DNA of 64,000 nucleotides from Minisyncoccota bacterium. Lineage in GTDB: Bacteria; Patescibacteriota; Minisyncoccia; Phycocordibacterales; JACRKE01. The translations under genes and the position numbers were made by a program. Of the stretch, positions 22,607 through 47,168 are shown piece after piece (position 1 is the stretch's first letter; every line of letters begins with the position of its first letter). The notes under the pieces were generated by a model. It was not told where the DNA came from, made no database searches, and saw only the letters and a program-made list of their open reading frames with translations. The DNA is taken from the NCBI GenBank assembly GCA_041660505.1, contig JBAZWG010000001.1, forward strand, positions 609,768 through 673,767, written 5' to 3'.

Positions 22607-22854
22607 CCCCAGAATTTATTTATATATTAAGTACAAGTAATAATAAGAATAATATGTCAGAAGAAAATATGCCGGAGCCGGAGTTGGAGATAGTGCCGGA
22701 GCCCGAAAAAACACAAGTCCCTGCGCCCGTTATCTTCCCGGACATAGTGCCCAAAACAGACGAGCCGGAAAAGCCGACGATACACTAAATATTCTTAGCC
22801 TCGTTGTCCACTGTTTTATTTTGCGCGGCATACTCGGCGTTATATAATACAGGG

Positions 22855-23214
22855 ATGGAAGGCTCACCGAAGCTCTATAAAGAGTCGCGCCCGTGGGGGA
22901 ACTTCGAACGCTTCACCCTGAACGAACCGACGACAGTCAAGATAATCACGGTTAACCCCGATGAGGCCTTTAGTTTGCAAACACATGATCATCGCAACGA
23001 ATTCTGGCGCGTGCTTAATGGCTCCGGCTTGGTGCAGATAGGGGAGGCGGAGCATGAGGCGCAGGAAGGCGATTCTTTCCTCATCAAGGCGCACGAGAAG
23101 CACCGCGCAACGGCCGGTACGAACGGGCTGGTTATGCTGGAAATTGCCTTCGGCGAGTTCGATGAAAAAGATCTTACTCGAATAGAAGATCGTTATGGGC
23201 GCGCTCAACAATAA
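22855..23214 (+). CDS. cupin-fold protein, mannose-6-phosphate isomerase type II (ManC C-terminal) like
   Basis: WGNFERF...VKIITVNPDEAFSLQTHDHRNEFWRVLNGSG...EGDSFLI...HEKHR cupin motifs with His ligands. Confidence 0.62.
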   Translation: MEGSPKLYKESRPWGNFERFTLNEPTTVKIITVNPDEAFSLQTHDHRNEFWRVLNGSGLVQIGEAEHEAQEGDSFLIKAHEKHRATAGTNGLVMLEIAFGEFDEKDLTRIEDRYGRAQQ

Positions 23215-24316
23215 TCCTAATAATTTTTGGCCGGTCGTTTTATTCTTCCTCGCGATATTCGCCTTAGCCTTTTTCTATCATTGGCTCACACGCAAGAAAA
23301 TTTCGGCGCCGGTCATACTCCTTCGCTTGCCCGAGAATCCCATCCTCTCGCCCGTCAAAGAACATTGGTGGGAGTCAGAGGCGGTCTTCAATCCCGCAGC
23401 GTTCGTGGATGACGGCAAAGTACACCTCTTCTATCGCGCCTTGGGCCGTGATGGCATTTCGCGCATTGGCTACGCCTGGAGTACGGACGGCTTGCACTTC
23501 GAGCGTTTGTCATACCCCGTATTCTCTGCCGAGAACGTGCAGGAAGTGAAGAGCCACTTCCCCTACACCTCGCCGGTGCGCTTGTCCTATGACACGGTCA
23601 ACAATCCATCCGGTGGCGGCTGGGGAGGCTTAGAAGACCCGCGGGCTATAAAGATTGACGGCCGTATTTACCTTACCTTCAACGCTTTCAACGGCTGGGA
23701 GTCGATGCGCGTCGGCTTGACCTCGATAAGCGAAGAAGATTTTAAAAATAAGAATTGGAACTGGCGCAAGTTCGTCTACCTTACCGACGAACGCAACAAG
23801 AATTGGATGTTCTTCCCCGATAAAATTAACGACAAGTTCGCGCTCCTCCACAGTATCTACAGCGAGAATGGCGAACGCGTCCAGATTAAATATCTTGATA
23901 GCTTGCATATTCACGGCCCGCTCCAGAATCTCAAGTCCGCCGACCCGCACAGGCTTAAGGACCAGAAGATAGCCTGGCACTATCGCATCCGCAGTGCCGG
24001 CACGCCGCCGTTGCGCACCAAGTACGGCTGGCTGGTCTTGTACCACGCAATGGATCCGAATGAGCCGAGCCGGTACAAAGTCGGCGCCCTGCTCCTCGAC
24101 CTCGCTTCGCCCACCAAGGTCATCGCGCGGAGCGACCATCCTATCCTCGAGCCGGACATGTGGTACGAGAACGATTGGAAGCCGGGGATAGTCTACGCCT
24201 CCGGTGCTGTAGTTCTCGGTGAAGATCTCATGGTCTACTACGGCGGCGGTGACAAATATGTCGCCGGCGCAAAAGTGAATTTGGAGTTGCTTATCAAGAG
24301 CCTAATGCGACAGTAG
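23195..24316 (+). CDS. GH130-family glycoside phosphorylase-like protein (DUF377), N-terminal TM anchor
   Basis: NPA..YRALG.DG.SRIGYA.S.DG motif and C-terminal VYYGGGD; five-bladed propeller family signature. Confidence 0.68.
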   Translation: MGALNNNPNNFWPVVLFFLAIFALAFFYHWLTRKKISAPVILLRLPENPILSPVKEHWWESEAVFNPAAFVDDGKVHLFYRALGRDGISRIGYAWSTDGLHFERLSYPVFSAENVQEVKSHFPYTSPVRLSYDTVNNPSGGGWGGLEDPRAIKIDGRIYLTFNAFNGWESMRVGLTSISEEDFKNKNWNWRKFVYLTDERNKNWMFFPDKINDKFALLHSIYSENGERVQIKYLDSLHIHGPLQNLKSADPHRLKDQKIAWHYRIRSAGTPPLRTKYGWLVLYHAMDPNEPSRYKVGALLLDLASPTKVIARSDHPILEPDMWYENDWKPGIVYASGAVVLGEDLMVYYGGGDKYVAGAKVNLELLIKSLMRQ

Positions 24317-24380
24317 TTCTCGCCTAGGCCGGTCTGTCATACGGCGGCCTTTTTTGCTATACTGTCGTCGTCAGAATTAT

Positions 24381-25154
24381 ATGAAAAAGTGGGAAATAGT
24401 CGTGGAAAAGTTTCTTGATGAATGGCGGGACAAGCCGGAGGTTTTAGGCGCTATTGTCGGAGGCAGTCATGCGGTGGGGAATGAGACGGACCTTTCGGAC
24501 ATTGATCTTCAGGTGGTTTTGAAAAACGATATTCCGTGGAGAGACCGAGGGCTTACATGCATCGATGGAATTATTATTGAATATTTCCTTGTACCTATAG
24601 GAAACTATAAAATCTATTCCGAGCAGGGAATCAACAGAGACCAGATCAAAGTAGATGCCAGAATATTTTCGACCGGAAAGGTTGTATTAGACAAAGACGG
24701 CAGTATGGCAGAACTGGTCAAAGAAGCTTATGAGAAATTGAAGAAAGAATTTCCCGTCTATCCGGACGAGGCAAAAGCCTTGATGCAAAAACACCTTTGG
24801 GACACGCATGATCATTTGGAAGAATACACTAAATATCCCTCACCGATGTTCGGTATCCTATACGGCATTTTACTGAATGATATTCTAGAATTCTACGCGC
24901 GAGTTACTCGCACGGAAAGATTGCCTTTAGAAAGAGCCCATAAATTGATTACAAATGAAGTCTATAGAGAAAGATATGGATTCCCAAGAGTATCAGACAA
25001 AAAATTCGAGACACTTCTACTGTCGGCGATAGAAAAGCAAGATTTCGCAAATATTGATGCGCTCTATACCTATGCCCAAGAACTCGGTGGGGGCTTCGAC
25101 CAGTGTAATTGGTATTTAAGACGGAAATCACTGGTGCAAGTGGTGAATAAATAA
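24381..25154 (+). CDS. Pol-beta-type nucleotidyltransferase domain protein (ANT/KNTase-like fold)
   Basis: LGAIVGGSHAVGNETDLSDIDLQVV is the GS...D.D nucleotidyltransferase motif. Confidence 0.58.
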   Translation: MKKWEIVVEKFLDEWRDKPEVLGAIVGGSHAVGNETDLSDIDLQVVLKNDIPWRDRGLTCIDGIIIEYFLVPIGNYKIYSEQGINRDQIKVDARIFSTGKVVLDKDGSMAELVKEAYEKLKKEFPVYPDEAKALMQKHLWDTHDHLEEYTKYPSPMFGILYGILLNDILEFYARVTRTERLPLERAHKLITNEVYRERYGFPRVSDKKFETLLLSAIEKQDFANIDALYTYAQELGGGFDQCNWYLRRKSLVQVVNK

Positions 25155-25176
25155 TAATGATTGATATTGCGCCGGA

Positions 25177-26112
25177 TTGCTAGTATTATGTCTGATATTC
25201 ATGTCTTGGTTACTCATTGCCCTTATTGGGCCTATACTCTACGCTGTCGCTAATCATATCGATAAGCATGTTATCGAGCGATACTTGAAGGGAGGGGTCG
25301 CAGGCGCACTTATAATATTTTCATCCCTCTTCAGTATCGTGGCGTTGCCGGTGCTTACTTACTTCGAGCCGTCGGTACTTGATGTTACTCTTTTGCAGGG
25401 GGTTTACCTTGCTCTGAACGGCATGCTCGTCGTGTTTGCCTTCCTCGCTTATTTCTACGCGCTCACTTATGATGAAGCATCATATGTTGTCCCATGGTAT
25501 CAGACCATACCGATCTTCGGATTCATTCTCGGCTATTTTATATTAGGCGAGAAAATTTCCCAGACTCAAGCTCTGGCGTCCGCATTCATTCTCGCCGGTG
25601 CAATAATTCTATCGCTCGACTTCGGCGGCAAAAAGATGCACTTTAAACGCGAGGTTGCTTTCCTTATGCTCGGCGCCTCGCTACTTTATGCAATCAATGG
25701 AGTTGTATTTAAAGTTATTGCAACCGACGCCGGTTTCTGGGTCAGCGTATTCTGGGGGCTCGTGGGCAAAGTTATCCTTGGCTTCGCCTTCCTCGCCTTC
25801 ATTCCCTCATATCGCAATCAATATTTATACTTGTTACGACATAGCGGTTTGACAGTACTGGGCTTTAATTCTTTAAGCGAATTTCTCTCGATGATTGCAG
25901 AAGCGGCCATGCAATATGTGACCCTGCTTGTACCCGTCGGGATAGCGCTTCTTGCCAACTCGTTCCAGCCATTCTTCGTTCTTATTATCGGTAGTCTCAT
26001 CGCATTCTTCTGGCCGAGCAAAGAGGCCGAATCGCTCCGAGCCGGCAAAATGACCCAAAAAGTTGTAGGCATAGCCATTATGGTCCTGGGGAGCTATCTG
26101 ATCGGGGTATAA
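25177..26112 (+). CDS. DMT/EamA-like multi-TM transporter
   Basis: About 10 predicted TM helices in a two-fold repeat architecture. Confidence 0.5.
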   Translation: MLVLCLIFMSWLLIALIGPILYAVANHIDKHVIERYLKGGVAGALIIFSSLFSIVALPVLTYFEPSVLDVTLLQGVYLALNGMLVVFAFLAYFYALTYDEASYVVPWYQTIPIFGFILGYFILGEKISQTQALASAFILAGAIILSLDFGGKKMHFKREVAFLMLGASLLYAINGVVFKVIATDAGFWVSVFWGLVGKVILGFAFLAFIPSYRNQYLYLLRHSGLTVLGFNSLSEFLSMIAEAAMQYVTLLVPVGIALLANSFQPFFVLIIGSLIAFFWPSKEAESLRAGKMTQKVVGIAIMVLGSYLIGV

Positions 26113-26160
26113 AAGATTTTATTTGCGATGATTTTTAAATCCTAGTATACTGTCCTCACT

Positions 26161-26550
26161 ATGCATTTTGGCGAACATCTGATGATTGACGGTTATGGTG
26201 GCGACACGGAACTTTTGAATTCCGAGGCACTCGTCCGTAAAATTCTGACAGAATTACCAGTGCAGTTAGGGATGCAAACTTTGGCGGCACCCGTAATAAT
26301 TTCTGCTCCCGACAACGATAAAAAAGACCCCGGTGGCTGGAGCGGCTTCGTCGTTATTGCCGAGAGTCATGTGAGTATTCATACTTTTCCCAAGCGCGGT
26401 TTCGTCAGTATCGATGTGTACACCTGTAGGAATGGACTCGATATTGAAACTATCAAAGCCTATTTCACCGGCTCATTCGCGCTCGCCGAACTCGAGACCA
26501 ACTTCGTCTTACGCGGTAAGAAGTATCCGCAACAAAACATTCATGCATGA
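26161..26550 (+). CDS. speH: S-adenosylmethionine decarboxylase proenzyme (small pyruvoyl type)
   Basis: Self-cleavage motif AESHVSIHTFPK...SIDVYTCRNG matches ESHxxIHTWPE...FTCG; 129 aa. Confidence 0.78.
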   Translation: MHFGEHLMIDGYGGDTELLNSEALVRKILTELPVQLGMQTLAAPVIISAPDNDKKDPGGWSGFVVIAESHVSIHTFPKRGFVSIDVYTCRNGLDIETIKAYFTGSFALAELETNFVLRGKKYPQQNIHA

Positions 26551-27479
26551 CAGAGCTTCCAGCCTTTCCCGAATTTAAGCAGATAGAGCTGGCAGACCGA
26601 TCGTCGGTAGAAAAACTGACAGAAAAATTTCCGCCATATTCAGACTTTCATTTCTCCAGTTTGTATTCTTGGGACATCAACAAAAAAATGGGATTATCCG
26701 TGCTGAACGGCAATCTGGTGGTTTTGTTCAATGATTATATTTCCGGAAGTTTTTTCCTGACATTTATTGGAGATTCAAAGATTTCTGAAACAGCCTCCAT
26801 ACTGCTAGATTTTTCAAAACAGAATGGTTATGAAAGCTCCCTAAAACTTATTCCCGAAGAAATGGCAAAAGTATTGTCGGAAACAGGATTCTCTGTAGAG
26901 CCCGATGCCGGAGCTCATGATTACATCTATTCGATTGAACGTCTCGCAAACATGGAAGAATGGAGTAAGAGCACACAAAAGAAGCAGATCAGAAAATTTA
27001 TGGATACGAACCCTCAGTACTCCGCTCGGATATTACCCACTAAGGAATTAGACAAACGAGAATACCTCGAACTTTTTAAACAATGGGCAACCAACAAAAA
27101 TCTCCTTGATCACACGGAGTTGAACGAGTATAAAGCCTTTAGCCGGCTTCTGGCCGAAAACAATGGCGATGTTGAAATGTTGTCTATATATAGCGACGAG
27201 TCGTGTAAAAAAATGATCGGATTTACATCGTTTGAAACGATATCCGATGACTACGCCATAGCGCATTTTTCTAAAGCCGATATTAAGCATCACGCCGCAA
27301 TTTACTGCGTTTTGATATGGGAAGAGGCGAAATATCTTCAGAAAAAGGGTATAAAGCACTACAATTGGGAACAGGACCTGGATATACCTGGACTACGCAC
27401 TTTCAAAATGTCCTACAAGCCGGAATTTTTCTTAAAGCAGTACACGGTGAGTTTACCTGTGTTGTCGTCACAATCGTAG
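26547..27479 (+). CDS. hypothetical 310-aa protein translationally coupled to speH; AT-rich; not spermidine synthase
   Basis: ATGA overlap with the speH stop; no SpeE GGGDGG motif. Confidence 0.55.
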   Translation: MTELPAFPEFKQIELADRSSVEKLTEKFPPYSDFHFSSLYSWDINKKMGLSVLNGNLVVLFNDYISGSFFLTFIGDSKISETASILLDFSKQNGYESSLKLIPEEMAKVLSETGFSVEPDAGAHDYIYSIERLANMEEWSKSTQKKQIRKFMDTNPQYSARILPTKELDKREYLELFKQWATNKNLLDHTELNEYKAFSRLLAENNGDVEMLSIYSDESCKKMIGFTSFETISDDYAIAHFSKADIKHHAAIYCVLIWEEAKYLQKKGIKHYNWEQDLDIPGLRTFKMSYKPEFFLKQYTVSLPVLSSQS

Positions 27480-27504
27480 CCAACCTCGTATTAAATAGCC
27501 CCAA

Positions 27505-28617
27505 ATGATAATCATTGACCTGAAATTTCTTGTTAGAAAACGAGCGAATTTATTTTTTCTTATCGACAATCTCTCTTTTCCTATTGATTCAATGCACCGA
27601 GATTACAACCGTGAGTGGCTGGAGCTTTTCGGACAACTGTCGGATAGCGAGAATAATGCGCTCGAAAAATACAGGTTGTTTAAAAAGTCTATCTGGGACA
27701 GAGGGGGAGGCAAACTACTTACTCGTTTTGAATCTGCCTTTTATCAATTTTCAGAATTAGACCTGAGAGAAGAAAAATTATTACTAAATATTCTTACCGA
27801 AGAAGAGTCTGGCGAATTAGATAAAATCTTTAGCTATTTTCAAGGCAGGTTTGAACTAATGTGGGAAAATTATTGTCGGATTCTCTCGAATAATCTTATC
27901 TTTCTTGAAAACGATTTTGCTTCCGTTCAACAAGTGTTTAGTGAGACACTCTCTGTAATTGGCGGGTTGTATGGGGTTAATAATTTTAACGATCGAATCG
28001 AAGTCTTTCTTATGATGCGACCGGCCACCGGGTTTTCCGGAGGGAGAATGATTAGCCGAAAGCCCCCTATAGTAATGATCGAGAGCGGGATTTCTAAACC
28101 ACAAGATCTTGACCAAATAAATCATCTGCGGCTATTACTTTTTCATGAGCTCACTCACGCCTGTTTTGAAAACGAACGTTTTTTAAAATTTCTCGGTGAA
28201 TATATCGAAAAGAAAACTCCACTCACTCACTTTCTTGAGAAATACCCCTCAACAAAGACTCCAGCTTTGGCCACCCGCCGAGCAATGCGAGAAATGATTA
28301 TTAACTCCATTGAATATAGTACGTACGTTCGAGGTCGGCTTGAACAAGGTTGTGAGATAAATTCCAATAATGGGGAAACTATTCTGAACGAAATTCGAAA
28401 CAAAAAATCTTTTAAACTCGCGAAAGGCACCCAAGAGAAACGCTCTATTATTTTGACCAGCGGAGAGGATACTTACCGGTATGTCGCGTGGAAGCTAGAA
28501 GGAATTGTGCGACCATATCTTGATAATAAAAAGCGCATAGATGATGAATTCTTAGACGGTGTTTATGATGTCTTAAAAGCATTTCCGGATAACCTTCTTG
28601 ATGATTTGAAATTGTGA
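27505..28617 (+). CDS. hypothetical protein with HExxH motif (LLFHELTHACF), possible metallopeptidase
   Basis: Single HELTH motif; AT-rich; converges on the rSAM gene end. Confidence 0.5.
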   Translation: MIIIDLKFLVRKRANLFFLIDNLSFPIDSMHRDYNREWLELFGQLSDSENNALEKYRLFKKSIWDRGGGKLLTRFESAFYQFSELDLREEKLLLNILTEEESGELDKIFSYFQGRFELMWENYCRILSNNLIFLENDFASVQQVFSETLSVIGGLYGVNNFNDRIEVFLMMRPATGFSGGRMISRKPPIVMIESGISKPQDLDQINHLRLLLFHELTHACFENERFLKFLGEYIEKKTPLTHFLEKYPSTKTPALATRRAMREMIINSIEYSTYVRGRLEQGCEINSNNGETILNEIRNKKSFKLAKGTQEKRSIILTSGEDTYRYVAWKLEGIVRPYLDNKKRIDDEFLDGVYDVLKAFPDNLLDDLKL

Positions 28618-28674
28618 ACAAAAAGGCTGGCTCCCTAGAAACCCAGGAACCAGCCAAACTCCTCATCCTTTCTG

Positions 28675-29931
28675 TTAGTGATCAAGGATGTGTCTAAGGA
28701 GGTTCTTCGAAAATTCCCTGATTGCTTCGCATCGATAGCTCCTCTCTTTCCAGAAAGCTTCTGGTGAGACTTCGGCTTTATTGGCAGGGCAGTCTCCCTT
28801 ACAACCAAATTGAGCGAAGCAGTTCTGGCAGTCGGGAATACTCCTGACATTGAATTGCCGGAGGTGTCTGTATCGGTCTGCATCGAACACGAAAGCCTGT
28901 TGTTTTGGATCGTACTGTCCGAAACAAAATAGCAAAGCAGCGTCGTTTGCGCCCACACCGGCCATTCTATGGCAGGAAACAACTCGGCCGTCATAGGTGA
29001 TTGTGAAGTTCTTGCCAGCGGCTCCACAAAAAGCGCTACCCGTTGTCCGCCACGCCTGTGCAAGCGATGTTCTTATGCTAACGTTCAACGTTTTGGCAAC
29101 TTCAGACGCCTCAGTGAATTTCCCTAAGAATAGGGAGTCCACTGGTGGTTGAGCAAGCGGATTGACTTTCGCTCTCCCCATCGCGAAAAGTGGTTCGTAG
29201 GTTTGGACGCAACCAGGGAATCGTTCCCCGAAAAATCTCACCATTTCAGTCAGACGGTGAACGCTTGCTGCGGAAATGGTGGAACGGAACCTTAGTTTGT
29301 GCGGTGCAATCTGATAGATTTCCGTTGCCGCATCGAACACGCGGTCGAAACTCTTGCCCCGTTGCGCATCGTGGATATCCTTGGGCCCATCCACGGATAG
29401 TAGTATGTTGTCCATGTTCTCGGCGAGCCACCTGGCCTTTTGAGACGACATACAACCGTTGGTAGTGATTCCTGCCGAGCTCTCGAGACCCTGTTCTGAC
29501 GCTTGCGCGTGGAGGTACTGTACCGCTCCGACCAAGGTAGTCCAAGGTAGTGTCGGTTCACCGCCGAACATCCATGCACCGACCTTGCGCTTTCCTGAGT
29601 CTCTCGCAGATTTTATGAGATGGTCGACAGTAGCTCGGACAACCTCAGTCGGCATCGTTATGGTTTCTGTCGGCCGCGGGACGTAACCTCCAAAGCAGTA
29701 GATGCACCCAAGCTTGCACTGGTTAGTGAGCATCAAGGTTGCACCCGTAAAGAGGTAGTTCGGTTCTTCCGCTACCTCTTTTTGTATCGTCGAAGTCGGG
29801 GCGGTTACAAAATCTGGGATTGTTTCTGCAACATTCGCTTCGACCCGATACACCTTTCGCATTGTGGGAACGTAAATAATGACGCTATCTCCGTCTTGAA
29901 TCTTGAAGAGTCGGTGTTGAACAAGTTCCAT
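28675..29931 (-). CDS. radical SAM enzyme with C-terminal SPASM domain (RiPP peptide maturase-like)
   Basis: CxxxCxxC at LTNQCKLGCIYCFG; SPASM CX2CX5CX3C at CQNCFAQFGCKGDC plus flanking Cys; about 65-aa N-terminal extension; RBS ACGGAGG 6 nt before the ATG. Confidence 0.85.
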   Translation of the reverse strand: MELVQHRLFKIQDGDSVIIYVPTMRKVYRVEANVAETIPDFVTAPTSTIQKEVAEEPNYLFTGATLMLTNQCKLGCIYCFGGYVPRPTETITMPTEVVRATVDHLIKSARDSGKRKVGAWMFGGEPTLPWTTLVGAVQYLHAQASEQGLESSAGITTNGCMSSQKARWLAENMDNILLSVDGPKDIHDAQRGKSFDRVFDAATEIYQIAPHKLRFRSTISAASVHRLTEMVRFFGERFPGCVQTYEPLFAMGRAKVNPLAQPPVDSLFLGKFTEASEVAKTLNVSIRTSLAQAWRTTGSAFCGAAGKNFTITYDGRVVSCHRMAGVGANDAALLFCFGQYDPKQQAFVFDADRYRHLRQFNVRSIPDCQNCFAQFGCKGDCPANKAEVSPEAFWKERSYRCEAIREFSKNLLRHILDH

Positions 29932-29951
29932 GGATAACCTCCGTTATTATG

Positions 29952-29988
29952 GATCGAGGGTGGAAGCTATACGCTTCCACCCTCGATC
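29952..29988 (-). promoter_or_regulatory. perfect 16-bp stem-loop (GATCGAGGGTGGAAGC-TATA-CGCTTCCACCCTCGATC) between precursor ORF and maturase
   Basis: No U-run on the transcribed strand, so more likely an attenuator or processing/stability hairpin than a full terminator. Confidence 0.6.
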
Positions 29989-30014
29989 TTCTTCGAGTCA
30001 ACGACAGTTAGTTG

Positions 30015-30161
30015 TTACTCGCCGCAGCTGTCTCCATCTCCCCAGCAACCGTCTTGGTCCGAGTCGCATGCACTGCAACTTCGTGACGTGTCGGATGGAA
30101 GCGATGCGCTTGCGCAGGCAAGCCCTTCCAGCTGCTCCAGGGTCAAAGTCGGCTCTCTCAT
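30015..30161 (-). CDS. unannotated 48-aa Cys/Asp-rich RiPP precursor peptide candidate (ranthipeptide/SCIFF-like)
   Basis: Minus strand reads CGAAAGGAGGTGCCTATG...TAA. It translates to MREPTLTLEQLEGLACASASLPSDTSRSCSACDSDQDGCWGDGDSCGE. RBS AAGGAGG lies 5 nt upstream. Five Cys with nearby Asp/Ser/Thr at the C-terminus, helical acidic leader. Below the 60-aa ORF-track cut-off. Confidence 0.6.
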   Translation of the reverse strand: MREPTLTLEQLEGLACASASLPSDTSRSCSACDSDQDGCWGDGDSCGE

Positions 30162-30200
30162 AGGCACCTCCTTTCGTTGTCGAAGATCATTGTCAAGCTG

Positions 30201-30231
30201 ATTCTACCCCCCCCCTATTGCAATTTGTCAA
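30201..30231 (-). promoter_or_regulatory. promoter for the precursor peptide: TTGACA-N19-TAGAAT with a G9 (C9 on plus) tract in the spacer
   Basis: Reverse complement of plus 30201-30231; C9 run at 30207-30215; the 19-nt spacer is suboptimal; direct repeats TTGTCAAG at 30190-30197 and 30225-30232. Confidence 0.45.
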
Positions 30232-30419
30232 GTCCTTCGACTGAGCGAATTCCAAAGTGATTCCAAAACCTTAACTGTTAGACGGGCATGTACACCCGGA
30301 TACTTACTAACCTACGCCATTGGGGATATATAGTCGATTTACCAACTTCTCTCTGTTAGGTTCTTGTGATACGATTAGTGTATGGATAGAATCTCAAAAG
30401 TGTTACTGGGTGCGATAGT

Positions 30420-31373
30420 ATGCCTAGTTGTATCTTCGGTATTATATTCATTTTATTCGACAGTCGTTCGACAAGATTTTCAGGTGAGCGACACGACTCC
30501 CGCAACCGAATAATTACATATATTCCCATGCAATCAGATCAAAATCAATATTGGTCAATGACAGAAGGTGTCTTTAACTGTCTCATTGACACCGAGCGAA
30601 CCGAAGCCTTTCAAAAAGCTATACGAAATACGGTAAAAAGGGGTGATATTGTTGTCGATCTCGGGTCTGGCTCCGGGGTCATGGCTATGTTCGCCGCCGA
30701 CGCAGGTGCGGCAAAGGTATACGCCGTTGAAATAGATTTGCGCAATATAAAAACGCTCCGAGATACGTTTGCAAAAAATGGATATGCAGACGTGATTACA
30801 GTTATCGAGGGGGATGCCACAAGTGTTGTGTTGCCAGAAAAAGTTGATGTGATTATCGCAGAGATGGTTGCGACTGGCCTGATTGAAGAACTACAAATTC
30901 CAGCGATGAATAATGCGCTCATGTATAAAAAGGAGAGAACACGCGTTGTTCTAAGCCGAATTGATAACTATATTGATCTCGTTTTTAATAATCCTGTATT
31001 TTATAATCACACGTTCAATATCTTCCGTTACGAATATCCGGACATCGAGCAGCTACGATCAAATAGTTTTTCTGACAGGATTATATATTCTTCTATAGAC
31101 TTCAACCATGTATGCAGTGAGAGGAATGTGGATGCAACATACGAAGTCTCGATTACTAACGACGGGGTGATTAATGCGCTCAGAATAAGCACCGACACTT
31201 TTTTTGCTGACAATTCAACACTTGGTCCTACCTATGCCTACGCATATCCGTTAATTCTCCCCATCCCCGAATCCAAGGTTAAAAAAGGAGATATTTTTTC
31301 GGTAAAAGTGTCCTACGAGCTCTGCGGAGGTTTCGATGGGTTCTCATACTCGGTAACTAAAAAAAATGTTTAG
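30420..31373 (+). CDS. PRMT-like class I SAM-dependent methyltransferase
   Basis: DTERTEAFQKAI...DIVVDLGSGSGVMAMFAADAGAAKVYAVE (motif I and post-I) and VDVIIAEMV match the protein arginine methyltransferase family pattern; alternative start at 30528; stop overlaps the HK start. Confidence 0.6.
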   Translation: MPSCIFGIIFILFDSRSTRFSGERHDSRNRIITYIPMQSDQNQYWSMTEGVFNCLIDTERTEAFQKAIRNTVKRGDIVVDLGSGSGVMAMFAADAGAAKVYAVEIDLRNIKTLRDTFAKNGYADVITVIEGDATSVVLPEKVDVIIAEMVATGLIEELQIPAMNNALMYKKERTRVVLSRIDNYIDLVFNNPVFYNHTFNIFRYEYPDIEQLRSNSFSDRIIYSSIDFNHVCSERNVDATYEVSITNDGVINALRISTDTFFADNSTLGPTYAYAYPLILPIPESKVKKGDIFSVKVSYELCGGFDGFSYSVTKKNV

Positions 31374-33075
31374 CAACTACTATTGCCCGGGAAATCTCTC
31401 CGTGCTCGGGGCCTTTGATTTCAGTTATGCCCCCACGCTCATTTTTTATGCTTACATACCAATAATTCTTGTCTCGATATTTTTCGGATTATTGCTTATT
31501 TTCAGAGATAAGTTTTCTATTCAGGGAAAGCTTATCTTTCTGCTTTCACTCTTCTTTTCGTTTTGGAATCTTAATGTTATTGCCGAGTGGATAACCGTCC
31601 CCGTCAACCTAAATCATTTTTTTTGGCAACTAACCATGCTGTTTGAGATGCCGATTCCGCTACTCGCGATATACCTCACTCTTGTTTTTATCTACAAAAA
31701 GGATATTTCGAGCAAGTTAAAAATATTACTGACTATATTTTTCCTGCCGGTCCCACTGCTTCTGGCGACCGTCTATAATATCGGCGTATTTGATGTGCAA
31801 AATTGTCAGCCAGCAGTCGGTTGGTTAACGTATTACGTCTATGCGATCGAGATTTTTTCCATTCTATGGATTGTTATAGCCGCGTATAGAAAATACCAGA
31901 TCGAATCAAGCCCCTCCGAAAAAAAACAAATTCTTCTGATGGTTTCTGGTATATCACTATTTCTCCTTACCTTTTCTTTGTCGAATATTCTCGGCGAGTG
32001 GACTCAATTTTATCAAATCAACCTTATCGGTCCTATTGGTATGGTGGTGTTTCTGGCGCTCATGACTTACCTTATCGTCAAGTTCAAGACCTTCAATATC
32101 AAGCTTATTGGTACACAGGCTTTGGTGTGGGCGCTTATTATACTTATCGGGTCGGAGTTTTTCTTCATCCAAACAAACGTCAATAGAATTCTCACTGCCG
32201 TTACCCTTGTAATATCGGCTTGGATGGGTCTCATAATTGTGAGAAGCGTAAAGAAGGAAATTGAGGCTCGTGAGATTATCGAAGGTATGGCGAAGAAACT
32301 TGAGGGGGTTAACACCGAGCTCGAGGGTGCCAATGCCAAGCTCAAGGTACTTGACCAACAGAAGTCGGAGTTTGTCTCTATTGCTTCGCATCAGTTGCGG
32401 TCGCCGCTCACAGTCATTAAGGGCTATTTATCCATGATGATCGAGGGCGAGCCGGAGTTGGCCGACCTTAAGGCGGGGACTATCACGCCGAAGGGGGTGG
32501 AGGTCATGAACACGATGTTCCAATCGACCAACCGCTTGGCGCATATTATTGAAGACTTCTTGAACGTCTCGCGCATCGAGCAGGGCAAGATGAAATACGA
32601 GATGAGCGACTTCGACATCCGCCAGATGGCGCGGGAAGTGGTGGGTGAATTCCAAGCCGAGGTGGGCGAGAGGAAACTGACGCTTATCTGCACCGACAAG
32701 TCGCCAAACGCGAGCTATATGGTCTACGCCGACGCGGGCAAGCTCCGCCAAGTCATCGGCAATATTATTGACAACTCTATCAAGTACACGCCGCAGGGCG
32801 GGATCACTGTCTATCTTGAACGTCTGGCGGATAGTACTAGACTTTCGGTGAAGGACACCGGCATCGGCATCTCGGCCGAGAACCTTAAGAATTTGTTCCA
32901 GAAGTTCTCTCGCGCATCGAACGGCGGTAAGGTCAACGTGACAGGATCCGGCCTCGGCCTCTTCGTCGCTGTCGAAATTATGAAGGCGCATAAAGGCAAG
33001 CTGTGGGCAGAGTCGGATGGAGAAGGCAAGGGCTCAACTTTCGTGATAGAACTTCCAATTAAAAAACGGAATTAA
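31366..33075 (+). CDS. sensor histidine kinase with about 8-TM N-terminal membrane sensor domain; no response regulator adjacent
   Basis: H-box SIASHQLRSPLTVIKGY; HATPase_c N/G boxes (IIDNSIKYT, GSGLGLFVAVEIM); start overlaps the MTase stop. Confidence 0.85.
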   Translation: MFSNYYCPGNLSVLGAFDFSYAPTLIFYAYIPIILVSIFFGLLLIFRDKFSIQGKLIFLLSLFFSFWNLNVIAEWITVPVNLNHFFWQLTMLFEMPIPLLAIYLTLVFIYKKDISSKLKILLTIFFLPVPLLLATVYNIGVFDVQNCQPAVGWLTYYVYAIEIFSILWIVIAAYRKYQIESSPSEKKQILLMVSGISLFLLTFSLSNILGEWTQFYQINLIGPIGMVVFLALMTYLIVKFKTFNIKLIGTQALVWALIILIGSEFFFIQTNVNRILTAVTLVISAWMGLIIVRSVKKEIEAREIIEGMAKKLEGVNTELEGANAKLKVLDQQKSEFVSIASHQLRSPLTVIKGYLSMMIEGEPELADLKAGTITPKGVEVMNTMFQSTNRLAHIIEDFLNVSRIEQGKMKYEMSDFDIRQMAREVVGEFQAEVGERKLTLICTDKSPNASYMVYADAGKLRQVIGNIIDNSIKYTPQGGITVYLERLADSTRLSVKDTGIGISAENLKNLFQKFSRASNGGKVNVTGSGLGLFVAVEIMKAHKGKLWAESDGEGKGSTFVIELPIKKRN

Positions 33076-33135
33076 AGAATTTGAGAATTAAAGAATCATT
33101 CCAAAATTCATAAATTCTAAGATTCCGTCCAAATT

Positions 33136-35052
33136 ATGTATATCATCAAGCGCAGCACGCACAATCCGCTCATTGCACCATTGAATGACAAGCAGTGGGA
33201 GTCGCGCGCGACATTCAACCCTTGCCCCGTCCGGCAAGGCAAGACGACGCACATGCTCTATCGCGCCTTGAGCCGGCCGGATGCCTTGCGCGAGCCCGAA
33301 GGCTTATCAACGATCGGCAAGGCAATCACAATGGACGGTGAACACTTCCAGGCGCGCAGGGCGTTCATCGTGCCGGAGCAGCCGTGGGAGAAGTATGGCT
33401 GTGAAGACCCGCGCGTTACATTCTTCGAGGGGAATTATGTGACGTTCTATACTGCTCTGGGTGGGATGCCCTTTGGCCCCGGCAATATCAAGGTGGCAGT
33501 GGCGCTGTCTAAAGATATGGAGCGCATCGACGAGAAGCATCTGGTCACACCCTTTAATGCCAAGGCGATGGTGCTCTTCCCCGAGCGAGTCGGCGGCAAG
33601 GTTACGGCAATATTCAGCGCGCACACCGATGAGCCACCGGTCAAGACTGTAATCGTCCAGGCCGACAAGCTCGAAGACTTTTGGGATTTGAAATTTTGGG
33701 AAAAGTGGCACGCGGAAATTGACGAGCACATCGTTAATCCTTTGCGCTTCAGCCACGACCATATCGAGGTTGGGGCGCCGCCATTGCGTACCAAAGACGG
33801 CTGGCTCTTGTTCTATTCTTATATCCAGAATTATTTCGGCGGAGGGGAGCGCGTCTTCGGCATCGAGGCATTACTCCTCGACTTCGATGACCCGCGCCAG
33901 ATAGTCGGCCGGACGAAGGGGCCGATCATGGTGCCGGAAGAAACTTACGAGAAGTACGGCATGGTGCCGAACATCGTCTTCCCCACGGGCGCGCTCCTGA
34001 ACACGAACGGCCGCGTGGATATTTATTACGGTGCGGCGGATACTGTCTGTGCGCGAGCCTCGTTAAGTTTACAAGATTTACTCAGCGCTATGGTGCCGGA
34101 ACGGCGCGCCCAACTCGCCGTGCGCGCGAAGGAGAATCCGATTCTTAAACCTGCTGAGGGCCACTCGTGGGAAAGCAAAGCGGTCTTCAACCCCGGGGCT
34201 ATCGAGATAGACGACACTATCTATTTGCTTTACCGCGCGATGGGTAACGATAATAATTCTGTTCTCGGCTATGCATCGACCAAAAATGGCGTGAAGATAA
34301 CAGAGCGTCTGGATCAGCCAGCCTATGTCCCGCGTGAAGACTTCGAGAAGAAAAGGGGTGGCAATACCTCGGGCTGTGAGGACCCGCGCCTGACCAGAAT
34401 AGACAATACAATTTACTTGGCTTACACGGCGTTCAACGGCGTCGACCCATGGCACGCGGCACTCTCCTCGATATCCGTAAAAGATTTCTTGGCCAAGCGC
34501 TGGGATATGTGGGAGAAGCCTCAACGTGTTACTCCGCCCCAGATACAGGATAAAGACGCCTGCCTTCTGCCAGAGAAAGTTGCTGATCAATACATGATCT
34601 TCCATCGCATCGATCCGATGATTTGCGCCGACTTTGTTGACTCTCTCGACTTCGCTAAGACTCCGCTCACGCGTTGTATCGAGATAATGGGGCCGCGGCC
34701 GGGTATGTGGGATAGCGCTAAGATCGGTATCGCCGGCCCGCCTATAAAGACAGATGCCGGCTGGCTTTTGCTCTATCACGGCGTGTCCAAGACCTCTACA
34801 TACAGACTCGGTGCTGTACTATTGGACTTGAAGAATCCCTCGATAGTGCTCTCGCGCTCTGTGGACACTATCTTCGAACCGCTTGAGGAGTACGAGCGCG
34901 TCGGCCAAGTACGCAATGCTGTGTTCTCGTGCGGGGCGGTGTTGCGCGGCAAGACCATCTATGTGTATTATGGCGGGGCGGATACGGTCGTGGGCGTAGC
35001 GAAGATAGCACTCGACAAGTTGCTCAAAATCCTGGCGCCGAAGAATTTATAA
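33136..35052 (+). CDS. tandem-duplicated GH130-family (DUF377) glycoside phosphorylase-like protein
   Basis: Two copies of the NP...YRA.G.D..S..G.A.S.DG ... YYGGAD pattern in a 638-aa protein. Confidence 0.7.
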   Translation: MYIIKRSTHNPLIAPLNDKQWESRATFNPCPVRQGKTTHMLYRALSRPDALREPEGLSTIGKAITMDGEHFQARRAFIVPEQPWEKYGCEDPRVTFFEGNYVTFYTALGGMPFGPGNIKVAVALSKDMERIDEKHLVTPFNAKAMVLFPERVGGKVTAIFSAHTDEPPVKTVIVQADKLEDFWDLKFWEKWHAEIDEHIVNPLRFSHDHIEVGAPPLRTKDGWLLFYSYIQNYFGGGERVFGIEALLLDFDDPRQIVGRTKGPIMVPEETYEKYGMVPNIVFPTGALLNTNGRVDIYYGAADTVCARASLSLQDLLSAMVPERRAQLAVRAKENPILKPAEGHSWESKAVFNPGAIEIDDTIYLLYRAMGNDNNSVLGYASTKNGVKITERLDQPAYVPREDFEKKRGGNTSGCEDPRLTRIDNTIYLAYTAFNGVDPWHAALSSISVKDFLAKRWDMWEKPQRVTPPQIQDKDACLLPEKVADQYMIFHRIDPMICADFVDSLDFAKTPLTRCIEIMGPRPGMWDSAKIGIAGPPIKTDAGWLLLYHGVSKTSTYRLGAVLLDLKNPSIVLSRSVDTIFEPLEEYERVGQVRNAVFSCGAVLRGKTIYVYYGGADTVVGVAKIALDKLLKILAPKNL

Positions 35053-35059
35053 AACACAC

Positions 35060-35806
35060 ATGAATATACCGAAGCTCGTCGCTTTCGACCTCGACGGCAC
35101 CATTGCACCAAGTAAACATCAGACGGAGGCCGACATGGGCTTGCTTCTCGCGAGCTTGCTGGCGAAGTTGCCTGTCGCTATAATGTCCGGCGCTTCGTTC
35201 CATCAGTTCGAACGGCAATTTTTGCCAGCCTTACCGGTTGACGCAAATTTTTCCAATTTATATTTATTCCCAACGAACGCGGCGGCCTGCTATGTGTACA
35301 AAGACGGCAAATGGCAGGAGCAATATAACGAGAAGTTTACCGATATTGAGCGTGAGAAAATTATGAATGCACTGAATGAGGCGATGACAGAAACTAATTT
35401 CCAATCTTTCGTGCCGCAAACTTGGGGTGAGCAGATAGAAGATCGCGGGGCGCAGATTACTCTCTCTGCCCTGGGCCAGCAAGCACCGCTTGAGGAGAAG
35501 CAGAAGTGGGACCCGACACGAGAGAAGCGCCAGCCGCTCTATGATTTGCTTTGTGAAAAATTACCTGATTTCTCCATCGGTTTGAACGCCACGACCTCAA
35601 TAGATATTACGAAGAAGGGGGTGAACAAAGGCTACGGTGTGCTCAAGCTCGCAGAACTGACGAAAATTCCCGTAGGCGAGATGCTCTATGTTGGCGACGC
35701 ACTCGGCCCGGGCGGTAACGATGCGATAGTTATCCCAACATGTATCCAGACGTATGCAGTAGCTGACCCGGAAGATACAAAAAAGTTTATTAAAAGCATA
35801 ATTTAA
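35060..35806 (+). CDS. HAD-superfamily IIB hydrolase (PMM/Cof-like)
   Basis: Motif I FDLDGTI; C-terminal GDALGPGGNDA. Confidence 0.68.
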   Translation: MNIPKLVAFDLDGTIAPSKHQTEADMGLLLASLLAKLPVAIMSGASFHQFERQFLPALPVDANFSNLYLFPTNAAACYVYKDGKWQEQYNEKFTDIEREKIMNALNEAMTETNFQSFVPQTWGEQIEDRGAQITLSALGQQAPLEEKQKWDPTREKRQPLYDLLCEKLPDFSIGLNATTSIDITKKGVNKGYGVLKLAELTKIPVGEMLYVGDALGPGGNDAIVIPTCIQTYAVADPEDTKKFIKSII

Positions 35807-35817
35807 TTTTTATTATC

Positions 35818-35997
35818 ATGACCGCGAATATTTTAAACGACGGGGAAGAGGATGTGCTCTCTGACGAGGCGGAGGAGGAGCTGACAGAGCTTATGGACGA
35901 ATATAGCATTGACCGCGATAGAGCTTTGCGCGTAAAGAAGCTGATGGATCGCGAAGGTCTTGACTCCGACAAAGCCATTGAAGCTCTGGAGGACTAA
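35818..35997 (+). CDS. small acidic helical protein (59 aa, unlisted ORF)
   Basis: ATG at 35818; its stop TAA overlaps the next ATG (TAATG). Confidence 0.3.
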   Translation: MTANILNDGEEDVLSDEAEEELTELMDEYSIDRDRALRVKKLMDREGLDSDKAIEALED

Positions 35998-45452: not shown

Positions 45453-45560
45453 ATTCCGCTGGGGAAAACTTGTGAATAAGTGCTGGATAACTTCTGTATA
45501 ACTTGGGGATGGATTAGCGCTACCGTGGCTAACATTTCTGTGGTCTGATTTGACACACAT

Positions 45561-45588
45561 TTGACACGCGCCGTGCCGGGTCTACAAT
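45561..45588 (+). promoter_or_regulatory. strong sigma70-like promoter TTGACA-N16-TACAAT in the adk2/RNase-J-like intergenic region
   Basis: Consensus -35 at 45561-45566 (a second TTGACA at 45550) and -10 at 45583-45588. Confidence 0.5.
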
Positions 45589-45595
45589 GGAGGCA

Positions 45596-45762
45596 GATCG
45601 TAAAGCTGCGTTGACTAGCATAAACATATTCAGGGAGCTCGCCAGTTGCACTGCGCCTTGGCGCATCGCACAGAGCACCCACTTAGAATTTCTAGTACAA
45701 TGTAACTTGACGGTTCAACCCTAGACACAAACCTTCGCTCCGGCGGGGTTTGTGTTTTTTCA
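45596..45762 (+). ncRNA. candidate about 165-nt sRNA or cis-acting leader/attenuator upstream of the beta-CASP ribonuclease gene
   Basis: Bounded by the promoter above and an intrinsic terminator (ACACAAACC...GGTTTGTGT plus TTTTTT at 45726-45762); internal hairpins (GCGCC-TT-GGCGC extended); no ORF. Confidence 0.35.
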
Positions 45763-45797
45763 GTTTGTTTCGTTCGTTTCTGTGGTATAATTATTTT

Positions 45798-47168
45798 ATG
45801 CAAAAGAAAAAAGCGACAATTTATTTTCACTCCGGAGCGGGGACAGTGACGGGCGCGAACTTTCGATTGGTAGGTGACGAAGGGACACAAATACTTTTAG
45901 ACTGCGGGATGTTACAAGGCTCGAAAGTGGCAGACGACAAGAACTGGGACCCGTTCCCATATGAGCCGAAGGATATAACCGCGCTCTTTGTCAGCCATCC
46001 GCACATCGACCACGTTGGCCGTATCGCGCGCCTCGTGCGCATGGGCTTTACCGGCACTATTTATTCGACCGCACCATGCAAGGATATCGGCCTCCTTTTA
46101 CTCGAAGATAGCTTGGGCGTCATTGAGAAAGAATGCGTTCATGATTGCAGATTAGAGCCTCTCTACGCCATAGAAGACGTGAAGAAAGCCGAGACGATGT
46201 GGAAGACTCTTGACTATCATCAGACTGTAAAAGTTGGGGATTATAATGTTCTATTTCGCGATGCCGGCCATGTGCTCGGCTCCGCCATGACGGAGGTGGA
46301 ATGTAACGGTACGAAGCTTCTCTACACTGGTGATCTCGGCAATTCGCCGTCGCCCATCATGCACGACACCGAGATAGTGAAAGATGCTACGTACCTCATC
46401 ATGGAGAGCACTTACGGCAATCGCAATCACGAGCACAAAGAAGAACGAGCAGAAAAATTAAAAGAGATAATACAGAGTACCATCAACTTGGGGGGCACTC
46501 TCATGATACCGGCCTTCTCTGTCGAGCGCACACAAGAGTTGCTTTATGAAGTGAACGAGATGTTCCGAGATAAAAAGCTCGCACCAGTCACGACCTATCT
46601 GGATTCTCCCCTCGCGATAAAGGTGACGGCGGTATATGAGAAGTATAAGAATATGTTTAACGACCAAGCGCGGGCAGATATTCTTAAGGGCGATATCTTT
46701 AAATTCCCCGGTCTCAAGATGACGATGACAACCGACGAGTCGCGCGCCATTTTGCATGACACTCGTCCCAAGATAATCATTGCCGGTTCCGGCATGAGCA
46801 ACGGCGGGCGCATCATCCATCATGAACGCATTTATCTGCCCGACCCGAAGAACACACTTCTTCTTGTGAGTTATCAGTCTGCCGGGACACTTGGCCGTGT
46901 GATCCAAGACGGCGCCAAGGGCGTGCGTATATTGGGCGAGATGGTACCCGTGCGAGCTCAAGTCGTCTCTCTCCCGGGCTATTCTGCACACAAAGATTCC
47001 GACGGGCTCTTCAACTTCGTTGAGCAGTGCGACGGCAATTTGCAAAAAGTGTTCGTCGCACTTGGCGAGCCGGCCTCGGCGCTATTCATGGTCCAACGTA
47101 TTCGCGATTATCTCGGCTATCAAGCCTACGCACCGTCAGCAGGAGAAAAAGCCGAATTAGAATTTTAA
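45798..47168 (+). CDS. metallo-beta-lactamase/beta-CASP ribonuclease (RNase J-like)
   Basis: SHPHIDHVG (HxHxDH) plus beta-CASP profile; extended -10 TGGTATAAT immediately upstream suggests a near-leaderless start. Confidence 0.72.
   Translation: MQKKKATIYFHSGAGTVTGANFRLVGDEGTQILLDCGMLQGSKVADDKNWDPFPYEPKDITALFVSHPHIDHVGRIARLVRMGFTGTIYSTAPCKDIGLLLLEDSLGVIEKECVHDCRLEPLYAIEDVKKAETMWKTLDYHQTVKVGDYNVLFRDAGHVLGSAMTEVECNGTKLLYTGDLGNSPSPIMHDTEIVKDATYLIMESTYGNRNHEHKEERAEKLKEIIQSTINLGGTLMIPAFSVERTQELLYEVNEMFRDKKLAPVTTYLDSPLAIKVTAVYEKYKNMFNDQARADILKGDIFKFPGLKMTMTTDESRAILHDTRPKIIIAGSGMSNGGRIIHHERIYLPDPKNTLLLVSYQSAGTLGRVIQDGAKGVRILGEMVPVRAQVVSLPGYSAHKDSDGLFNFVEQCDGNLQKVFVALGEPASALFMVQRIRDYLGYQAYAPSAGEKAELEF

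Follow-up and report, generated by a model that had tools for sequence, protein, structure and literature searches.

We identified an uninterrupted run of nine G residues (C9 on the plus strand) inside the spacer of the candidate promoter of a radical SAM peptide operon on the 719,008-bp contig of a "Candidatus Paceibacterota" MAG from an uncultured, ultrasmall CPR bacterium. Tentatively, and with a confidence that falls a little short of even, we read it by analogy with known systems as a hypermutable spacer tract that may vary expression of the operon. Throughout, the window is the whole stretch of that contig that was analyzed (64 kb; 64,000 nt). G/C homopolymers of at least 8 residues slip during replication, and sigma-70 holoenzymes are sensitive to spacer length. 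In the proposed mechanism, the tract, which makes up half the spacer of a sigma-70-type promoter of the precursor and maturase genes, would be prone to slippage. With nine G residues the spacer measures 19 nt and exceeds that of related operons by 2–3 nt, for which reason low expression is predicted for the majority allele that was sequenced. Each G added or lost in replication would shift the spacer by 1 nt, and by analogy with the meningococcal porA gene the G8 (18 nt) and G7 (17 nt) alleles would express precursor and maturase alike at increasingly high levels. The outcome would be heritable, reversible, graded or ON/OFF peptide production, in a population composed of producers and non-producers. 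We infer the steps that lead from a tract in the spacer to expression that varies and then to variation that is used; they presuppose an active promoter, a CPR RNA polymerase that is spacer-sensitive like other sigma-70 holoenzymes, a useful rate of slippage, and a benefit to the organism. The wider claim, that a CPR member employs slipped-strand phase variation so that production of peptide and maturase is stochastic, heritable and reversible and only a subpopulation pays for it or is exposed, we consider unlikely at present.

The candidate promoter and its nine-G tract

Read in order on the minus strand, the sequence ahead of the precursor gene is GGA-CTTGACAA-ATTGCAATA-GGGGGGGGG-TAGAAT-CAG-CTTGACAA-TGATCTTCGACAACG-AAAGGAGG-TGCCT-ATG (Table 1), with a predicted start site at the G at 30194 (7 nt past the -10 hexamer) and a distance of 39 nt from the TAGAAT promoter to the precursor ATG. 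When spacers of 15–20 nt were allowed, TTGACA-19-TAGAAT was the one site in this upstream region that scored at least 9/12, and alternative precursor promoters were rejected on this ground. In the whole window, only one further site likewise pairs a perfect TTGACA with a -10 hexamer matching the consensus in at least 5/6 positions. An extended -10 (TGn) is absent, positions -14 to -16 being G residues only. The assignment of this promoter to the precursor gene is supported by its being the sole candidate and by the fit of the promoters of homologous cassettes. The run exceeds the length of about 7–8 uninterrupted G/C residues from which tracts of the slippage type begin, and by sequence it lies between the two hexamers, -35 and -10, of the candidate promoter of the gene that it would regulate, the start site being a prediction. 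A first-pass annotation of this DNA had placed the C9/G9 run correctly, and its claim that this is the only good promoter for the peptide gene was borne out, relatives also having near-consensus promoters ahead of their precursor genes. Its arithmetic, whereby loss of one or two G residues would bring the spacer to the optimum, holds as well (18 nt and 17 nt, compared with 16–17 nt in relatives). Of its further proposal, a phase-variation switch, the anatomy stands (a tract of at least 7–8 residues between -35 and -10, as in porA), and the switching itself is the tentative reading given above.

Table 1. Positions of features at the peptide locus of the window and at homologous loci (L numbers; positions are those of each locus).
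Feature	Position	Strand	Remark
-35 hexamer TTGACA, perfect consensus	30226-30231	-	plus strand reads TGTCAA
Promoter spacer, 19 nt, AATTGCAATA followed by G9	30207-30225	-	direct read
Rest of spacer beside C9, TATTGCAATT	30216-30225	+	direct read
Uninterrupted G9 tract (C9 on plus strand)	30207-30215	-	abuts -10; direct read
-10 hexamer TAGAAT, 5/6 consensus	30201-30206	-	plus strand reads ATTCTA
CTTGACAA, copy 1 (TTGTCAAG on plus strand)	30225-30232	-	the -35 plus one base on each side
CTTGACAA, copy 2 (TTGTCAAG on plus strand)	30190-30197	-	spans predicted start site 30194
Ribosome-binding site AAAGGAGG	30167-30174	-	5 nt before ATG (30161)
Precursor peptide, 48 aa, Cys/Asp-rich, MREPTLTLEQLEGLA...DGCWGDGDSCGE	30015-30161	-	unannotated in all sources
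Perfect 16-bp hairpin, 5-nt loop	29952-29988	-	separates precursor gene from maturase gene; not followed by a T-run
Radical SAM/SPASM peptide maturase, 418 aa	28675-29931	-	Pfam, NCBIfam
Convergent 370-aa protein, invariant HExxH	27505-28617	+	own transcription unit; no Pfam/NCBIfam match
Precursor, L002	247-408		
Precursor, L004	3497-3646		
Precursor, L009	214-405		
Precursor, L010	421-576		
Precursor, L014	1800-1949		
Precursor, L015	39-197		
HExxH homologue, L002	1757-2896		
HExxH homologue, L004	5020-5982		
HExxH homologue, L007	5351-6457		
HExxH homologue, L009	1781-2854		
HExxH homologue, L012	3075-4097		
Promoter TTGACA-16-TACAAT, L004/5			upstream of precursor
Promoter TTGACA-17-TATAAT, L007			upstream of maturase; no recognisable precursor gene between
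Promoter CTTGACAAATT...-17-GATAAT, L010/11			upstream of precursor; extended -35 common to L010 and L011
Promoter TTGAAA-16-TACACT, L002/3			upstream of precursor
Promoter TTGCAT-16-TATACT, L014			upstream of precursor

Two other roles for these elements were considered and rejected. The second TTGACA, within the downstream CTTGACAA copy, has no usable -10 after it, and the C9 run does not serve a divergent promoter, the sole plus-strand candidate (30364-30392) lying about 150 nt off. On that side the start of the divergent methyltransferase gene differs between sources (NCBI: 317 aa, ATG at 30420; JGI: 281 aa, ATG at 30528), and its start region, 30382-30527, is overlapped both by the promoter-like site at 30364-30392 and by an ORF (30382-30513) whose 43-aa product would have a hydrophobic helix. 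Elsewhere in the window, the region 45460-45600 contains two TTGACA hexamers 11 nt apart (45550 and 45561), preceded at 45460-45510 by a tandem repeat of 11/22 nt. The second hexamer is part of a TTGACA-16-TACAAT site, and about 160 nt downstream of this site lies a beta-CASP/RNase J-like gene (45750-47168).

The peptide operon and its homologous cassettes

The full sequence of the precursor is MREPTLTLEQLEGLACASASLPSDTSRSCSACDSDQDGCWGDGDSCGE, and this exact sequence was absent from a collection of 15 billion proteins. In the maturase, PF04055 (39.6 bits) and PF13186 (22.4 bits) scored above cut-off, as did the SPASM model TIGR04085 (37.2 vs. 27). Its top NCBIfam matches were the PapB ranthipeptide, SCIFF and CcpM maturases, all far under their cut-offs (PapB: 108.9 vs. 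340 bits). Thus the locus has the Radical_SAM and SPASM domains and the adjacent short precursor with a conserved leader and a Cys-rich core that are expected of a RiPP operon, and its maturase scores below the curated level for any named family (PapB, SCIFF, CcpM and others). Since no promoter of the maturase's own was seen between the precursor and maturase genes, the G9 promoter presumably co-transcribes both. The operon is intact and has strong ribosome-binding sites; therefore the locus is not decaying. The hairpin between the two genes probably acts as an attenuator or stabiliser that sets the precursor-to-enzyme ratio. The convergent HExxH protein is plausibly a leader peptidase, a putative assignment made because HExxH is conserved beside the maturase and because a homologous cassette (L010) has a Peptidase_M16 gene. 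Compared with PapB/SCIFF-type rSAM/SPASM RiPP operons (ranthipeptides), the layout is alike, with a short Cys/Asp-rich precursor followed by a hairpin and then an rSAM/SPASM maturase, whereas the maturase of the window lies far below the family cut-offs, its precursor matches no family, and the HExxH protein encoded by its partner gene is unclassified.

The maturase family is small, with 21 proteins at E ≤ 1e-10, none of which is 69%–100% identical to that of the window. When the single rSAM protein was searched in metagenome and genome collections, there were pattern matches and no tblastn-confirmed relative. We compared the loci of ten relatives, of which seven have a recognisable upstream precursor (L002/3, L004/5, L008, L009, L010/11, L014 and L015). 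The five loci with a readable promoter, including L007, where it lies upstream of the maturase, all have spacers of 16–17 nt, and G/C runs of at least 5 are absent from these five spacers. The spacer of the window exceeds this family norm by 2–3 nt, and the excess sits in the G run. At L009 the spacer is ambiguous (best score TTGACA-15-AATTAT), L008 has no clear sigma-70-type site, and the sequence of L015 ends before its promoter. The distance from promoter to start codon in homologous cassettes ranges from 37 to ~120 nt. As judged from these comparisons, these genes are evidently served in these bacteria by sigma-70-type promoters of ordinary spacing.

The precursors of the family are 48–63 aa long, and those of the window and six relatives (n = 7) share an acidic leader motif of the (L)xELE type and a Cys/Asp-rich core, with the core motif DGC[FWC]GDxxSC[GS][ED] in 5/7. 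These precursors, each next to an rSAM/SPASM maturase whose scores stay under all NCBIfam maturase cut-offs, may represent an undescribed RiPP family. A hairpin between precursor and maturase is also found in the cassettes of L002, L004, L009, L010, L014 and L015; a short T-run comes after it in L002, L004 and L015, and none does in L009, L010 and L014. An HExxH protein of 320–380 aa, in which the motif HExxH(A)xF is invariant, adjoins the maturase in five other cassettes, and in L010 the Peptidase_M16 gene follows the maturase in its place; these proteins are likely a new leader-peptidase family. GC content over 27000-32000 of the window is patchy (flanking genes 0.39–0.44; maturase 0.52). 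Gene neighbourhoods of the homologous cassettes are unrelated to one another, which suggests that the cassette moves horizontally. In L002, a second strong ribosome-binding-site-like sequence, AAAGAAAGGAGGTG (148-165), lies between the promoter and the precursor gene, ~100 nt ahead of the latter, and could mark another small ORF.

Tract statistics, tract length and alternative explanations

The tract is the sole G/C run longer than 6 in the window, where runs of lengths 1 to 6 number 18703, 4950, 847, 201, 40 and 5, lengths 7 and 8 do not occur, and length 9 occurs once. Extrapolation of the run-length decay (0.185 per base) gave an expectation of 0.047 runs of at least 9 per window, and analytic Markov models of orders 1–5 gave 0.006–0.28. 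The tract is thus a real outlier for the sequence of the window. In addition, prokaryotes generally under-represent poly-G/C runs (PMC2831843). Scaled to the whole 719-kb genome, ~0.5 such runs are expected by chance, so that at this scale the excess is not overwhelming. This last number favours the explanation that we regard as a real, if on the whole doubtful, alternative to a hypermutable tract, namely that the run is incidental to a fixed weak promoter, left by drift or past slippage, with constant low transcription and with any slippage rare and of no consequence. The location of the run adds weight against chance, as the lone long G/C run of the window falls exactly, and whole, within the 19-nt spacer of one of its two best promoters, and it accounts for the 2–3 nt by which that spacer exceeds the family norm. 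Homopolymers of such length are, moreover, intrinsically unstable in every bacterium tested (PMC3639595; PMC8355987).

In favour of an incidental tract, the run is a one-off, none of the homologous cassettes having one. No notable di- to penta-nucleotide array and no contingency-type repeat other than G9 was found in the window, including its large fn3, Kelch and LamG surface-protein genes, so that further contingency loci, a usual companion of such switches if not strictly a defining one, are missing from these 64 kb. No mismatch-repair gene was found among the window ORFs scanned. In other CPR loci (68 kb) there were four G/C runs of 7–8 and none of 9; these shorter runs appear to have no obvious switch role. 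Three of them (L006, at 1804, 7528 and 8040) lie within ORFs of ordinary genes, which again favours an incidental tract, and the fourth, a C8 in L007 (3553-3560), is intergenic, between a tRNA gene and the maturase promoter. Promoters with 19-nt spacers keep some activity, and the G residues at -14 to -16 may help slightly. If the tract does not vary, the locus would simply have a weak promoter with an odd spacer.

The data at hand on tract length come from one population, in which no variation was observed (G9 in 2/2 assemblies), a further point in favour of an incidental tract. Proteins of this organism were found on one MAG contig only (NCBI and JGI copies), in addition to a 16-kb Logan contig (L001; SRR18595301). 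The latter matches 22675-35931 of the window with 0 mismatches in 13,257 nt and has the same G9 and A8/T8 runs, so that the length of the tract is confirmed by a second assembler for the same single population; being 100% identical over 13 kb, this contig was rejected as independent evidence on variation. The k=31 Logan contig passes unbroken through the tract, so that a balanced mixture of alleles is absent, and any minority length allele would have been collapsed in that assembly. A scan of metagenome and genome contigs with the flanks GACAAATTGCAATA-N{3,20}-TAGAATCAGC gave zero matches and missed the source genome itself too. Protein clusters gave no strain variants, all members being on the one 719-kb contig: the rSAM protein, the HExxH protein and the kinase each form a cluster of one, and the methyltransferase cluster has two members, which represent one gene whose start is called differently by NCBI (317 aa) and JGI (281 aa).

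A different kind of control, by a protein that binds the CTTGACAA copies at the -35 and the start site (perhaps with a flanking inverted repeat, GTCGAAG 30179-30185 / CTTCGAC 30235-30241) as operators and to which the G tract would be mere spacer between them, we judge improbable; it is not exclusive of the other explanations. The first-pass annotation had reported two TTGTCAAG copies 35 nt apart, at the -35 and the predicted start site, and had remarked that they look like regulator-binding sites. The copies are there as described: their starts are 35 nt apart, these are the only two sites of the 8-mer in the window on both strands (128 kb), and it is typical of repressors to sit over the -35 and the start site. 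Their interpretation as binding sites did not hold up. In dinucleotide-preserving shuffles of the 366-nt intergenic region, 17% contained some 8-mer direct repeat within 50 nt, and the TTGTCAAG pair is for this reason at chance level and not significant; the 7-nt inverted repeat is likewise at chance (67% of shuffles). Relatives keep only the -35 itself (CTTGACA) of the TTGTCAAG/CTTGACAA repeat, and a spacing of 35 nt is a non-integral number of helical turns. By Pfam, the immediate flanking genes code for a methyltransferase, an orphan 7TM histidine kinase, a GH130 protein and an LPG_synthase_C (lysyl-PG-synthase-like) protein, with no response regulator or HTH protein among them, and no DNA-binding regulator is conserved in the homologous cassettes. 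Neither a conserved repeat beyond chance nor a cognate regulator among the immediate neighbours scanned was therefore found, as would be expected of an operator. A 35-nt tandem duplication as the source of the pair was also rejected, only the 8-mer being common to both places.

Slightly less probable still is a true promoter elsewhere, or one for another sigma factor, with the tract outside any functional spacer. The start site used here is predicted, promoter rules for CPR bacteria are without experimental basis, and the intergenic region is long (366 nt), all of which would leave room for this explanation. Against it, the minus strand holds no other site of at least 9/12, the promoter of L004/5 lies at a near-equal distance from its start codon (37 nt vs. 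39 nt), other cassettes too have TTGACA-type promoters upstream of the precursor, and an Rfam search of the intergenic region at E ≤ 1 returned no match. An assembly or sequencing error that conceals a real G7 or G8 tract and an ordinary promoter is very improbable, since, even though some technologies err most often at homopolymers, two different assemblers both gave G9 without a single difference in the shared sequence, A8/T8 runs included, and the long ORFs of the window are unbroken.

Comparison with known promoter-spacer switches

Promoter switches based on spacer repeats include the poly-C tract of Neisseria meningitidis opc, the poly-C tract of Bordetella fim and the poly-A tract of Mycoplasma hyorhinis vlp. 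To these can be added the TA repeats that act as a promoter switch in H. influenzae hifA/hifB (van Ham 1993, as cited in PMC5084427). All of them resemble the tract of the window in that a simple repeat in or beside the core promoter sets the spacing of its elements, and all differ from it in controlling surface structures. The fim tract further differs in lying between an activator site and the -10, and in hif one repeat is common to two divergent promoters that overlap, whereas the divergent candidate of the window lies about 150 nt from the G tract. The closest parallel is N. meningitidis porA, where a poly-G tract lies between -35 and -10 and expression is high with 11G, 2-fold lower with 10G and 13-fold lower with 9G (PMC3639595). 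As in the window, the porA tract lies in the spacer, and one-base steps there alter the spacer and grade expression (11G > 10G > 9G) with no protein factor needed. The length variation of porA and its effect have been shown experimentally, whereas the window offers one allele only; the porA switch acts on a surface antigen in a host-adapted pathogen, and the target in the window is a RiPP operon of an uncultured CPR bacterium; the porA genome has many other contingency loci, unlike the surroundings of the window tract; and the window tract is too long rather than too short. Membership in the porA/opc type, as a switch like those known and maybe a new member of the kind, is plausible from the sequence arrangement.

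Both the host (Paceibacterota) and the target (a RiPP operon) are unusual for such a switch. Our searches of the open-access literature turned up no account of repeat-mediated promoter phase variation in CPR/Patescibacteria, the nearest related item being a hypervariable coding repeat in a Gracilibacterium (PMC6851277), and no RiPP operon under promoter-spacer repeat control in the same literature. If the proposal of a hypermutable spacer tract is true, this would be, as far as the open-access literature goes, the first contingency locus in Patescibacteria and the first RiPP operon under a promoter-spacer repeat. If the tract varies, a CPR genome of ~0.7 Mb with few regulators would use a mutation-based switch to diversify how a secreted or signalling peptide is expressed, which would bear on how episymbionts handle costly products and host interactions. 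A RiPP cluster could then be genetically 'off' in the sequenced majority allele, a warning to genome miners, and deletion of two G residues would be an engineering hint for heterologous expression.

With respect to the product, the nearest parallel is in the Neisseria nap island, whose bacteriocin-like peptides can be phase-variable through homopolymers inside ORFs (PMC11798529). These are likewise small secreted-peptide genes inferred to be phase-variable via homopolymers, which has been interpreted as bet-hedging where the product is costly or dangerous; they differ from the window operon in that their tracts lie within ORFs (frameshift ON/OFF) and not in a promoter spacer, and in that the peptides are unmodified.
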